Positions 18,901 through 24,900 of a DNA stretch of 64,000 nucleotides are shown here, one piece after another. The position numbers were made by a program. The stretch is from a plasmid: assembly GCF_988243305.1 (NCBI RefSeq), contig NZ_OZ547137.1. One strand, given 5' to 3'. Each line of letters begins with the position of its first letter. The stretch's first letter is position 1.

Positions 18901-21900
18901 TGGTGGCGGTGAACGGGCTGACGGGTGTCGTCATTTTCCCCGCTGGAAAACGGAACTGAGGAATTTCCCGCACGGCAGCTGCGATTTAGCCAGCAATACT
19001 CTGGCGTACTACCTCAAGGAACGAGAGAGATGCCATCCGTGCATCATTTTTATGGAAGGGAACGCTGGCTTTCATGAAGCGGAAAACTCAACAGTTCACG
19101 GGCATGTCATCGTATTGCTGGACGGAGAGTACATCGATTTGACGCTGGATCAATTCGACGAATATCCGGACTACATTCCTTACGAACCAGTCGAATCTGA
19201 CGGGCAGATTGGTAAGCTGTTGCGTAATATCATGAAGCATGAGGACCAGGTAAAAACCCGCCAGATTGATCTCGATGGTGGCGAAGAGCTGTATGCCTGG
19301 TTACGCGATACCGCCGACGAAGTGCTGGCAGCAGATCCGGAATGGCAGGCCCGGGAACGGTCGATAGAAGAAGCAAGGGAAGCCGCTATTACGGTGTTCC
19401 CGTTTCTGTCTGACGTGCAAAAAACTGAGTGCGAACAGGGCCCGGACAGTCAGGAGGCTGCCAGATGAAGATTTATCATTACACTGACCTGAACGGCCTG
19501 AAGGGCATCATCGAATCAGGCTCACTGTGGGCGACGCACTTTTCCTTTCTCAATGACAGTAATGAGCTGACTCACGGCATGAACTGCCTTGAGAATGCCC
19601 TGCAGTACCTGAGGGACGACTTTAACCCGAAAACCCTTAAGTTCATCGAACAGGCACTGACGCACTTCAGAATGCACCGGGCAGCTCACGTCTATAACCT
19701 TTCGTTCTGTCTCGAACCCGACCTGTTAAGCCAGTGGCGGGGTTATGGGAGCTCTCAGGGCGTGTGCCTGGAATTTGATGATGAAGAGCTGCTTGCCTCG
19801 CTGGAATTAACTCATTATCAGGTGTTTAAAAACCGGGTACTCTATACCAAAGAGGATTCCACGGTTGAAGCCCGGAACGAAATCCTCGCCTTCTTTCGTC
19901 AGCCACATGTTCAGGCGGCAATAAATGCAGATGTAATGCATGAGATGATTCAGGCAACCAGACTGGCACACAGCCTGCCGCCTTTTTTCAAGAATGACGG
20001 TTTCCAAGAGGAGCAGGAGTTCAGGATGGTAATCCTTCCGGAAAGCCCTTTTGAGGGTGTCAATTTTCGTGTCAATGACAGCGGTCTGGTACCATATCTG
20101 ATCATTAAAGCAAAAGACAAGCTGCCACTGACAAACGTCAGAATTGGTCCCCGCAGTAACAGAGCAATGATGATGGACGGGATTTCATTCCTGTTGCAGA
20201 GCAGGGGGTATACCAGTACACGGATTTCGTTTACTGAGACGCCGTTCCGGTAAATTCAGTTAAGAAGCACAAACTTCTAGGGATCAGTATGTTGAATAAA
20301 GTTTCACAAATTAATTTGGCCAAAATACTGGCTGAAAAATTTAACGAAGGTGACTGGCAGGAGCTGTTTGCTGTTACAGATTGTGAAGACGTTCCGGAAG
20401 GACTAAATCAATTCTACCGGCATGTTCACTGGGACAACCCTGAGCTGAAAGGGGTGGCCATCGCTGCCATAGAAAGCACTCTGGCCAGGGACGCTGATAA
20501 TCTTTCTAAGATCTGGGCGCTGGATAATGTTCAACGCTTTATCAGCATTGCCAATACTGAGTTATTCAATGAAATAAAGAACATTGTGAATCAGAACGGG
20601 CAAAGAAATGTTTCGGCAGCACCAGTGAAAAATGTAAATGAAAACATTTACCAGGCCTTAGAAGATGCGGAAGTGTTGCTTAAAAATAATGGGCCACACC
20701 GGGCATATGATCGTGTTCATACAGCTCTTCATGCTTCATTAAGACAAATGTGTGCCAACCATGGAATTGCGACCAATAGTACAAATGATAATGTTCCAGG
20801 CTTGCTTTCTCTGATAACTGCACATCTCAAAGACCTGCCTGATGATGGAAGAAATGAAGATGTGTTTAAAATGTTGAGATCATCTGCCGCAATACTTCAT
20901 GGGATCAATAACCTGCGTAACAATTACAGCATGGCCCATCCTACTGAAACTTTGCTGAATGAAGCCGATGCCCGTTTTGCCATAAATCTGGTTCGTTCCA
21001 TCATGACTTATGTTGATGAGTTGCTTTAGTTTTAATAAAAATATGAGACTCACAGCGAACAGATAGAACTTCAACGAAGAAGTGAAGTACGGCCAGAATT
21101 TCGAGCTCTGGCCCTCCGGAAGATGCCGGACAGACGCATCATCCCGTCGCGGCCGCTTCCATTTTTGTGTGTACTCAACCTGCCGGATCAGGATGGCGGC
21201 AGGATTTGCACCCGATGTTCCAGCCGCCTTGCCTCTTCCTGATCCCGGTATTCCCTCGCCTTTTTCATCATTTCTGCCGTTGGCTCCTGCAGTTTGTCGA
21301 GAAACTCCTTAGATCGTTTAGCCACCGACTGAAGGGAGACACTGTCCGTCCTGCCGGTATTGCGATTGGTGTAAACCAGGCGGGTAAGGGGGTCTGGTTA
21401 ACTCCTTCCCTTCCATAAAGCGTTTGAAGATCCAGAGATATATATCAACCAGCTCCAGCCCTGCACTTTTTGTACCCGACTGGAAAACCAGCGGTTCAGC
21501 CGGCATGTTCGTCACATCCATGACCGGTAAACCGGGACCGTGTACCCACGGCATCTCACGTATCTGGTAATAGAACTCCCTCAGCTCCCGCTGGGTGGTG
21601 TTGAACTGTGACTGCTGGTCCACAACGATGTCGGCTTTGCGATTTGGTGCTCCCAGGCGGGAACAGATACCGCGCAATACGAACTGAAATCCAACCATAT
21701 TGGGCATGATCTGCAGCTTTTGTTTACCGGTTTTGCAGTTATATCCCAGTTCGTCAAAGTGGGTCATCGCCCAGGACAACGCATCGGTAATCAATTCAAT
21801 GTAACGGCGGTCCCCCAGGGTATGAACGCGCGCAAGCAGCTCACTGCAGACCTCACTGAACAGAGATGAGGACCTTCCATCATGGGCTTCGAGGCGGGCA

Positions 21901-24900
21901 CGCCACGCTTTTTCAGCCAGTTCATTATCGAACAGGCTTGCCAGATTCAGTAGCAGCGGGTAACGAAAGGGGGTCCAGTAGGCAACCCTGGGCACTGCAG
22001 GATTCATCCCCTGATCGAAGAACGAAATAATGGCGTGATCCCGTTTAACGACCAGCCAGACATCAAACCGTATCCGGTGCTTCTTCTGCAGGACAAGCAG
22101 CGTATCAACCACCTCATCAAGGCGGTGCATGCCAAGCTCTGCGGCGTGCAGACGCTGTACTTGTCAACGCCACGATCTTTGACCGTCTTATATCGACAGA
22201 GTTATCCGGCATGGTGTCAATCCGTTCACAATTTTTCCATCGGAGCAGCCTACCACCGGTGATAACCTGACTTTGCCTGTAGTTTGTATACACAACCCCT
22301 GGCATTGAAACAAACATATGAAGTGTACTTCGGATATGACTGTACGCTCAGGAAGTACGGCAGATTCCGTCAAAAATTACCTGTAAAGACAGACATCAGA
22401 AAAACAGTGCTCGCCGCAGACCGGTGACCGGGCGAAGCCCGCGAACCGGCGAGGAAGCGCAATGGATCTGTAGTTACAGTGAGCAGGTACGCCCTGAAGC
22501 CTTCATAATCGGTAGTGTATGCTGTTTTTCTGGAATGATTTATCCACATATCCAGAGGCCCGATCCAGTAAACAGATCCATGAATGATCAACAAAGGATC
22601 CATTAAAGATCCCCATATCGCTGCAAACCTTGTCATTAATGGTCCGGGAGCACGATCACATAAGCTGTGGCATGTTACTGATAAACTGTAACAGGTTCAT
22701 GATAAGCTGTATTCAGTAATACATATACTGCCGTAAGTTAATGACATAAACTATGGTCAGTATGCCAGACTCAGTTGTTAAATACAGGCTGCAGGTTTTT
22801 CTTCAGTCAGTTGACGGGGTTCTGACACACGATTTTCTGTTTATTCTTTTACTGTCCACAGGCAGGAGGCTTTCTGGAAAACGAAAATTCAGACATCAAA
22901 AAACTGTTCGGCGAGGTGGATAAGTCGTCCGGTGAGCTGGTGACACTGACACCAAACAATAACAACACCGTACAACCTGTGGCGCTGATGCGTCTGGGCG
23001 TCTTTGTACCGACCCTTAAATCACTGAAGAACAGTAAAAAAAATACACTGTCACGTACTGATGCCACGGAAGAGCTGACACGTCTTTCCCTGGCCCGTGC
23101 AGAGGGATTCGATAAAGTTGAGATCACCGGCCCCCGCCTGGATATGGATAACGATTTCAAGACCTGGGTGGGGATCATTCATTCCTTTGCCCGCCATAAC
23201 GTAATTGGTGACAAAGTTGAACTGCCTTTTGTCGAGTTTGCAAAACTGTGTGGTATACCTTCAAGCCAGTCATCCCGCAGGCTGCGTGAGCGCATCAGCC
23301 CTTCCCTGAAGCGCATTGCCGGTACCGTGATTTCGTTTTCCCGTACCGATGAGAAGCACACCCGGGAATATATCACCCATCTGGTACAGTCAGCCTACTA
23401 CGATACTGAGCGGGATATTGTGCAGTTACAGGCCGATCCCCGCCTGTTTGAACTGTACCAGTTTGACAGAAAAGTCCTTCTCCAGCTTAAGGCGATTAAT
23501 GCCCTGAAGCGACGGGAGTCCGCCCAGGCACTCTACACCTTTATAGAGAGCCTGCCCCGGGATCCGGCACCGGTATCGCTGGCGCGGCTGCGTGCACGCC
23601 TCAATCTGAAGTCTCCTGTATTTTCCCAGAACCAGACGGTCAGACGGGCAATGGAGCAGTTGCGCGAGATTGGATACCTTGATTACACGGAGATCCAGCG
23701 GGGGCGGACAAAATTCTTCTGTATTCACTACCGGCGTCCCCGGTTAAAAGCGCCGAATGATGAGAGTAAGGAAAATCCGTTGCCACCTTCACCTGCGGAA
23801 AAAGTCAGTCCGGAGATGGCGGAGAAACTTGCCCTGCTTGAAAAACTGGGCATCACACTGGATGACCTGGAAAAACTCTTCAAATCCCGCTGAACATAAA
23901 CTGTAGTCAGTGAAGAGTGCTCCTTTACTGACTACAGCTTATATTATCAGGTGCAGTGAGTGGTCCGCTCACTGCAGTTTATATTCAGTTTCCTGCAGTG
24001 CTGCCTGTGGCTGAGCTGCCATCTGCCTGTCCCTTACGTGAGTCACCCCGTAACCTGATGCTGAGGCATTGCTCCCTTCATAAAACATGGTTTACTCACT
24101 ACAGCTTATCTACCTGCTCCAGCTTATGTTATGTCTGTTCTGCTGACCACTGCTTATATAAGGAAGTGCCGTTACTTCAGGGGAGGCAGTGTACGCAGGA
24201 TCTCCGCAGCATCCCGACCGTCACCTGTGAAAGGCACTGCCAGCGTGGCAGCCATATCCAGTGCAAACACTCTGGTATAAACCTCCATCGAACGTGGATC
24301 CCTGTGACCAGCCAGTGCCTGGATGACTTTCCGGGGCTGGCGGTGATAGAGCATGTGCATGATATAGCTGTGCCGGAAGGTATGCGGCGTCACCGGAATC
24401 GAAAAGTGTACCCCGTCAGCTTCGGCCCGTCTGACAGCCTGCTTCAGCCAGTTGCGCATGGTTTCGTCGGTCACGGCCCATAATGGTTCACGACGACGGG
24501 GCCGGGTAGTGATCATCCAGCTTTCCATCTGCCTGACATAGCTTATATCTGTCAGCGGAACCAGGCGCACTTCATCTTTTGGCGGGCGTCCGCGTCGCGC
24601 ACGCACTTTTTCGGACAGGATCCGCACAAACGGTCTTGCACCATCCAGGTCAAATGATTCCGGCGTCAGCATCCGGGCTTCGCCAATACGCATTCCGGTA
24701 TTCCAGAGGGTGGCGAACAGCATATGGTGACGCTGATCCGGCATATAGAAAAGAAGGGCACTCACTTCCGGGGCCAGCAGATAGGCCGGTGTGGCCCCCG
24801 TGGAAGTGGCCATTCTTCTCAGGGAGAGCGCTGTTGCAAAATCCACCCCCGGCGCAATGGGTAACAGGGAAACGCGTTCTGGTGAATTCTGCAGGGGAAT

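Follow-up and report, generated by a model that had tools for sequence, protein, structure and literature searches.

A putative DUF3800 pseudogene remnant beside the RepFIB replicon of a plasmid

In the plasmid contig NZ_OZ547137.1, the minus-strand interval 21188..22160 of the window (the whole 64,000-nt stretch of DNA that was analysed) is very probably what is left of a DUF3800 gene of 377 codons and no longer functional, a reading in which loss of function and of expression is deduced from sequence comparisons. The locus is a real but ordinary pseudogene that is already annotated by RefSeq (PGAP), under the label 'frameshifted; incomplete; missing N-terminus'. An earlier note had suspected a broken DUF3800 gene of about 330 codons, split into a 66-aa and a 270-aa ORF by a frameshift near 22117..22130, or else two unrelated ORFs. 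The broken gene was borne out by intact 377-aa relatives, which reveal several lesions in the window copy, but the ancestral gene was 377 codons long and lost its 5' end through deletion, not through a frameshift, and no frameshift is present near 22117..22130, the ATG at 22130 being the internal Met61 codon of the gene. The features of the locus are as follows.

21188..22160 (-), DUF3800 pseudogene remnant, matching the intact 377-aa gene from codon 51 to codon 377 (tblastn and PGAP coordinates)
21188..21325 (-), 45-aa ORF, end of the native C-terminus, read in the frame of the intact gene
21318..22130 (-), 270-aa ORF, internal Met61 to residue ~311, followed by 19 codons out of frame up to a premature stop
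21388..21392 (-), run of five C (G5 on the + strand), one base longer than the C4 of intact genes; this +1 insertion is the true frameshift
22011..22016 (-), place where 12 nt are deleted in frame, with four residues gone from FFDQVFDQG and a single GATCAG direct repeat kept
22117..22317 (-), 66-aa ORF, spurious and outside the gene
22160..22162 (-), 5' truncation junction, where homology to the intact gene begins (22161/22160) and beyond which the upstream DNA is unrelated
22164..22166 (-), stop codon TGA, in frame and two codons before the junction (three-frame translation, sequence read)
22163..22915 (no strand assigned), RepFIB upstream flank in place of the 5' end of the gene, with iteron-type repeats near 22654-22724
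22916..23893 (+), repA, annotated as a RepB-family initiator

The intact gene and the lesions of the window copy

Intact relatives are 377 aa long and belong to a family of 369-399 aa across 50-92% identity, which is widespread on enterobacterial plasmids (tblastn matches in 2,509 of 72,556 PLSDB records, remnants included). An Asp-Glu pair on the first beta-strand (D6 and E7, within YVDETG) is invariant in 49 family members, and intact paralogs match Pfam DUF3800 with 28-30.5 bits over profile positions 1-148. Since sequence searches found no relatives with solved structures, fold comparison was used, and the predicted model of an intact ortholog had RNase HII/H2A as its best match, so that the intact protein is predicted to adopt an RNase H2-like fold. 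The paralog neighbourhoods compared contained no obligate gene partner and were variable, with a HEPN nuclease, vapBC, ccdAB, DUF4238 or small hypothetical genes. Membership of DUF3800 in a known defence system was also considered, and PADLOC returned noise only and NCBIfam nothing; the R64 'ydaA' gene (1,134 bp, PMC8004404), another candidate member of the family, is annotated as a permease in NC_005014 and was dropped on that annotation.

The closest intact relative lies on the Citrobacter plasmid CP057321; over codons 51-377, two substitutions separate it from the window, one synonymous and one nonsynonymous (99.8% identity). When intact proteins were placed on the window by tblastn, residues 51-311 fell on 22160..21390 and residues 311-377 on 21391..21191, in the +1 frame. 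Blastn against two loci with the intact gene (L008 and L009) gave homology over 22161..18081 that ends abruptly at 22161, and the identical truncation junction occurs in three related loci (L001, L003 and L010). The promoter, the ribosome-binding site and codons 1-50 are gone, with RepFIB-flank DNA in their place, and with them went the D6-E7 motif and, according to the family alignment, the invariant residues D6, E7, G9, T11, G12, F16, D17, P21, L23, Y25, G26 and L28. Residues 1-50 of the intact protein found no match in 21000-23000 or in the rest of the window. Displacement of the missing 5' part within the 64-kb window by insertion or inversion was rejected, as the promoter region and the first 60 codons gave chance matches only (blastn, tblastn), which indicates deletion or replacement. 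The in-frame TGA at 22164..22166 closes the frame, so that the first start codon is the Met61 ATG.

Two further lesions lie downstream. Where intact genes read GATCAG-GTGTTY-GATCAG, the DNA alignment gives one GATCAG in the window and in L001, L003 and L010, and this 12-nt deletion takes out invariant residues of the D99-D103 block. The change from C4 to C5, some 740 nt further 3' than the frameshift proposed earlier, moves the final 66 codons to another frame, that of the 45-aa ORF, and removal of one C restores a 323-codon frame reaching the native stop. A C-run is a classic site for sequencing or assembly error, and about 14 close plasmids, including pSFO157, have C4; yet among the 449 plasmids carrying this allele, 407 independently assembled ones share the exact C5 61-mer, so the frameshift is not a sequencing error, and even with C4 the first 50 codons and four internal ones would be missing. 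We therefore regard a C-terminal part that is truly in frame as close to excluded.

Reading frames of the locus

Both ORFs of the earlier note are present in the ORF listing of the window. The 270-aa ORF contains SAGLELVDIYLW, and the DUF3800-like C-terminal motif noticed in it is genuine, since G288, L289, E290, L291, D293 and W297 are invariant in the 49-sequence alignment. This ORF is simply the part of the gene that can still be read from the internal Met61 until the frameshift brings in a stop. The 45-aa ORF corresponds to the original C-terminus of the DUF3800 protein: its region matches residues 311-377 of intact proteins with 70% and 58% identity (tblastn), and it equals the intact-gene locus L009 save for one synonymous change.

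The best-surviving alternative, although a very improbable one, is that the 270-aa ORF encodes a working DUF3800 protein of naturally shorter length that starts at 22130, the small ORFs being irrelevant. The same 813-nt ORF is annotated in CP051693.1 as a 'DUF3800 domain-containing protein' CDS, it begins with ATG, it keeps GLELVDIYLW (the GLELVDxYLW, QxxD-equivalent element of functional PF12686 proteins), and it is widespread; both the annotation and the ATG with the conserved motif speak against a mere remnant. Homologs nevertheless do not match the 270-aa ORF only from 22130, but go 10 codons upstream, to 22160, and run 66 codons past its stop in the +1 frame. Its Pfam DUF3800 (PF12686) match covers profile positions 62-148 only, with 14.6 bits against a gathering cut-off of 21 bits, instead of starting at position 1. 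Strands beta-1 and beta-2 are lacking, together with the N-terminal YVDE(S/T)G motif and the 12 invariant residues that include D6 and E7, so the five-stranded RNase H-like core is incomplete, and the ORF ends in its 19 out-of-frame codons in place of the native 66-aa C-terminus. The short proteins of the family in databases, all of them at least 83% identical E. coli-type fragments, are devoid of Pfam matches, and sister copies have gained more disabling lesions, as described below.

It is less probable still that a catalytically dead fragment made from Met61 could modulate the intact DUF3800 proteins of co-resident plasmids or the neighbouring AbiJ-like operon. If true, this would account for the persistence of the locus in about 425 plasmids, the one observation in its favour. 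That persistence may be read as retention, but is explained well enough by tight linkage to the essential RepFIB replicon.

The earlier proposal, in which the 66-aa and 270-aa ORFs formed one gene of about 330 codons, can hardly be maintained. The ORFs do lie on the same strand in different frames with a 14-nt overlap, and the gene is indeed broken, but residues 1-50 of the intact protein, matched nowhere in the window, show no similarity to the 66-aa ORF, which is therefore not a displaced N-terminus (BLASTP of this ORF against the intact protein, E=23). DNA homology to intact genes stops before most of this ORF, at 22161, about two-thirds of it lies within RepFIB-flank DNA (22184-22317) common to a plasmid without DUF3800, pO177A2, and the family length is 377 aa. 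A Pfam search of the 66-aa ORF gave no match, and none of the related records inspected annotates it; it is a chance ORF across the junction, unrelated to the DUF3800 gene. Of the choice between one frameshifted gene and two unrelated ORFs, the homolog alignment thus keeps the broken gene, discards the 66-aa ORF as part of it, and identifies the 45-aa ORF as the true partner.

Slippery CCC-C proline codons can support +1 shifts, but programmed frameshifting at CCC-CCU to restore the native C-terminus has next to no likelihood here, because intact orthologs have C4 and require no frameshift, the site is followed by neither a stimulatory stop nor a rare codon, the product would still be without the N-terminal catalytic strands, and a later 1-nt deletion scrambles the region in most plasmids.

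Decay among plasmids and the RepFIB surroundings

The remnant was detected in about 425 plasmids and in 421 of 5,426 complete E. coli genomes, and its sister copies show independent further disabling lesions, as expected where purifying selection is absent. In L003, an additional 1-nt deletion at 21494 garbles the GLELVD motif; in L001, a CAG codon has become the nonsense codon TAG and a His has changed to Pro. The 61-mer around 21494 is unlike that of the window in 314 of 448 plasmids, mostly through the 1-nt deletion, and the C-terminal motif is lost in about 300 plasmids. Added to the 5' truncation, the 12-nt deletion and the +1 insertion relative to close intact orthologs, this series is that of a pseudogene.

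Among remnant-free RepFIB plasmids sampled from the 3,514 records matching the query, every one matched its first 475 nt (22750..22276) at ~94-97%, and in pO177A2 the shared segment 22184-22317 is accompanied by sopA, with no DUF3800. We propose that, in the ancestor of this IncFIB plasmid lineage, illegitimate recombination or deletion may have joined the RepFIB flank to codon 51. Such an event would have cost the gene its promoter, ribosome-binding site and start codon, along with strands beta-1 and beta-2 and their D-E motif. A slippage deletion of 12 nt between the GATCAG repeats would have occurred before or after the truncation; the extra C in the C4 run would have followed the truncation, giving the state of this window, and sister lineages would then have lost one more nucleotide or gained a nonsense codon.

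Upstream of the remnant, the minus strand showed no sigma-70-like promoter, and folding of the convergent intergenic region 21030-21190 was not significant (z = -1.7 and -1.9). For DUF3800-associated structured RNAs (Weinberg 2017, PMC5737381), Rfam gave no match at gathering scores at the locus in the window, L004 and L005, nor any at E<=1 around the intact gene in L009. As a side observation, 28-bp AGATCCG-N14-CGGATCT sites flank the cassettes; they are candidate targets of ResD-family recombinases and might serve a site-specific exchange of cassettes.

The biological weight of the locus is small and is a matter of correcting annotation: none of the 270-aa, 45-aa and 66-aa ORFs should count as a gene, and analyses of the adjacent AbiJ-like/DUF2971 operon should not presuppose that this plasmid has a functioning DUF3800 partner. 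For work on the 377-aa family an intact copy is preferable, for instance that of CP057321 or NZ_CP122641, while the lesion series (truncated C4, then C5, then C5 with the 1-nt deletion) may serve modestly as a marker of RepFIB plasmid lineages.

Comparison with annotated, intact and distant DUF3800 loci

Two PGAP pseudogenes represent the same locus. QUS00_RS01095 (NZ_CP128580.1; 99.6% nucleotide identity) maps exactly to window positions 21188..22160, and I6J89_RS24285 (NZ_CP069560.1; 98.7%) shares the RepFIB repA junction and the C5 run, but lacks one further nucleotide, at the site corresponding to window 21494. Upstream of the remnant, the window has a few SNPs of its own. Over codons 51-377, amino acid identity is 98.5% with QMF90417.1 (Citrobacter CP057321) and 97.6% with WP_044722458.1 (E. 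coli IncI-gamma/K1 plasmid NZ_CP122641), whereas the paralogs WP_000545983.1 and WP_000545985.1 reach 82% and 76%. The QMF90417.1 and WP_044722458.1 genes are, like the window copy, convergent to the same four-gene AbiJ-like/DUF2971 operon. Intact 377-aa genes still possess the promoter region, codons 1-50 (including YVDETG), the tetrapeptide VFDQ and C4, every one of which is lost from the window copy.

Further afield, a DUF3800 RNase H2-like fold has been described for accessory proteins of type VII retrons (PMC7736814) and for Cas12a2-associated TPR-DUF3800 proteins (PMC10910872). Unlike these, the plasmid family consists of stand-alone 377-aa proteins with a large helical insertion, showing no link to a retron RT, to Cas12 or to an Rfam DUF3800 RNA motif. 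What the intact plasmid family has in common with PF12686 systems is an RNase H-like core bearing an N-terminal D-E pair together with a C-terminal xxxD motif.

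Reading frames and lesions of the DUF3800 remnant

Three open reading frames (ORFs) were considered at this locus:

21318..22130, minus strand: 270-aa ORF
22117..22317, minus strand: 66-aa ORF, in a frame different from that of the 270-aa ORF
21188..21325, minus strand: 45-aa ORF in the +1 frame, corresponding to aa 311-377 of the intact DUF3800 protein

The ORF listing bears out the earlier note in that the first two lie in different frames and overlap, by 14 nt. The 270-aa ORF contains SAGLELVDIYLW and scores 14.6 bits against the Pfam DUF3800 profile (cut-off 21 bits), with a match confined to C-terminal profile positions 62-148 of 149. 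On enterobacterial plasmids, intact relatives have 377 aa throughout. When two intact paralogs were compared with 21000-23000 by tblastn, aa 51-311 matched 22160..21390 in frame with the 270-aa ORF (82% and 76% identity), aa 311-377 matched 21391..21191 in the +1 frame, and aa 1-50 had no match. When PLSDB was searched by tblastn with the "repaired" protein, intact orthologs (97.6-98.5% identity) turned up on plasmids of Citrobacter, Enterobacter, Salmonella, and E. coli. Over codons 51-377, the window differs from the Citrobacter plasmid CP057321 (L009) by two substitutions only, Q86L and a synonymous one.

Nucleotide alignment with L009 exposed three structural lesions. The 5' homology starts sharply at 22161/22160, at codon 51, with unrelated DNA standing where the ortholog has its upstream region and the first 150 nt of its coding sequence; an in-frame TGA (22166..22164) lies directly at the junction, and the ATG at 22130 is the internal Met61 codon of the ancestral gene. 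A 12-nt in-frame deletion between GATCAG direct repeats (ca. 22011-22016) takes four residues out of the invariant FFDQVFDQG block. Finally, an additional C at 21388-21392 has turned a C4 run into C5, a frameshift adding 19 aberrant codons before a stop at 21318; taking one C out gives a 323-codon frame as far as the native stop.

The suspicion of a broken gene raised in the earlier note was thus right. The 66-aa ORF, however, which that note suggested might form with the 270-aa ORF one gene of about 330 codons split near 22117-22130, is unrelated to the DUF3800 gene: it had no family match in Pfam, its BLASTP comparison with the intact protein gave E=23, and its positions 22184-22317 are RepFIB upstream flank, also found in pO177A2, where the flank is followed by sopA with no DUF3800 sequence. 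The missing 5' part was not found elsewhere in the window either. The join is thus wrong, and we give it hardly any credence.

Distribution, decay, and origin of the remnant

The surrounding DNA is a common IncFIB segment of E. coli plasmids, with 21050-22750 (1,701 nt) found in 425 PLSDB plasmids at >=80% coverage and in 421 of 5,426 complete E. coli genomes. The exact C5-containing 61-mer occurs in 407 of the 449 plasmids with this allele; the frameshift is not an artefact, and sequencing error is a most improbable explanation. About 14 plasmids, including pSFO157, share the truncation and the 12-nt deletion but still have C4, suggesting that the truncated gene is older than the C insertion. 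Sister copies have decayed further. On one plasmid (L003), one more nt is missing at the position equivalent to 21494, so that the conserved GLELVD motif is no longer read in frame; the 61-mer around 21494 differs from the window in 314 of 448 plasmids, the 1-nt gap being seen in sampled rows. On another (L001), a CAG codon has in addition become the nonsense codon TAG, and a His has been replaced by Pro. Such independent disabling lesions are the signature of sequence under no selection. Programmed +1 frameshifting, which would read across the C5 run into the 45-aa ORF, is very unlikely.

A functional short protein has in its favor that the 813-nt ORF was entered as a CDS in one GenBank submission. 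Among 843 relatives, full-length members have 369-399 aa (50-92% identity), and every short entry is a near-identical fragment of the E. coli type and has no Pfam hit. Twelve N-terminal residues invariant in a 49-sequence alignment (D6, E7, G9, T11, G12, F16, D17, P21, L23, Y25, G26, and L28) all fall inside the deleted segment, and we hold this explanation to be highly improbable as well.

With great confidence, we favor a RepFIB flank fused to codon 51, the fragment being carried along and then decaying. Illegitimate recombination or deletion would have joined flank and codon; the fragment, lacking promoter and start and presumably not expressed, would have hitch-hiked with the replicon, slippage and homopolymer lesions building up afterwards. 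No sigma-70-like promoter was seen upstream of the remnant on the minus strand. The remnant is a real but ordinary feature, already labelled by PGAP as [quoted passage not shown]; the coordinates of this pseudogene correspond exactly to 21188..22160.

The cassette and the DUF3800 family

A ca. 4.1-kb segment (window 18081..22161), of which the remnant forms the truncated end, recurs on an IncI-gamma/K1 E. coli plasmid (L008) and the Citrobacter plasmid, with 93-94% nt identity. This five-gene cassette is located as follows:

Window: 18081-22161
L008: 4733-9357
L009: 4739-9356

Four of its genes form an operon and encode a DNA-binding protein (so named in the relatives' annotation, and coiled-coil-like), a 206-aa protein, a DUF2971 protein, and an AbiJ/Abi_C-HEPN protein; the DUF3800 gene lies at one end, convergent to them. 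In the window, all four operon genes have kept their full length (86-97% aa identity) and DUF3800 alone is dead, so the operon persists independently of it. The cassette occurs on three backbones (IncFIB, IncI-gamma/K1, and a Citrobacter replicon). Its identity with L009 is mosaic (DUF3800 99.8% nt, the 206-aa protein only 86% aa), which suggests recombination within it.

DUF3800 paralogs have other neighborhoods, consistent with a stand-alone gene located in accessory or defense hot spots of plasmids. The 377-aa family, remnants included, gave tblastn matches in 2,509 of 72,556 PLSDB plasmids, chiefly from Escherichia, Klebsiella, and Salmonella, usually amid toxin-antitoxin, HEPN, and P-loop NTPase genes; one match, on an IncFIB/IncHI1B plasmid of Klebsiella, adjoins rmpA2. 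PADLOC and NCBIfam gave no result for the family, and no Rfam DUF3800 RNA motif was found beside these plasmid genes. Despite this prevalence, we know of no biochemical or biological function established for it.

Neighboring elements and palindromic sites

A SIR2-HerA anti-phage pair (13816-17991, minus strand) has its SIR2 gene interrupted by an IS3-family element, making it a second inactivated accessory gene adjoining the remnant:

17467..17991 and 15621..16112: SIR2 fragments (PADLOC SIR2 profile positions 2-152 and 186-346)
16268..16576 and 16573..17439: orfA and orfB of the IS3-family element
13816..15624: HerA (E 1.8e-221)

Five Rfam gathering-score hits in the window, at 48039-48161(-), 39393-39509(+), 48691-48807(-), 55866-55982(-), and 53253-53339(-), comprise an isrC sRNA, three ALIL pseudoknots (frameshift elements of IS3-family insertion sequences), and one group II intron catalytic domain. 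A GATC-rich palindromic cluster (22574-22601 and flanks; gggatctttaatGGATCC...GGATCTgtttactggatc, minus strand), kept in all RepFIB loci inspected, probably represents Dam-methylation or origin-associated sites and not a cassette boundary site.

DUF3800-containing cassettes are flanked by 28-bp imperfect palindromes (AGATCCG-N14-CGGATCT; chance expectation 0.09 per window).

Positions of the 28-bp palindromes in the window and compared plasmid loci
Window: 13541-13568, 18061-18088
L009: 4742-4769, 9085-9112
L008: 4736-4763, 9085-9112
L004: 2238-2265, 4193-4220
L013: 3742-3769, 7371-7398
L011: 5715-5742
L012: 5680-5707
L001: 7655-7682

One lies ca. 400 nt upstream of ccdA-ccdB-resD (window 12932..13150, 12625..12957, and 11815..12624, respectively). 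None of them coincides with the 5' truncation at 22161. The points at which homology between plasmids breaks off lie inside or beside these palindromes: window versus L008/L009 ends at 18081, L008 versus L009 starts at 4733/4739, and window versus L001 splits inside the site. By analogy with reports of homology ending at rfsF (PMC8004404, PMC9412624), they look like putative rfsF-type ResD sites for cassette exchange.
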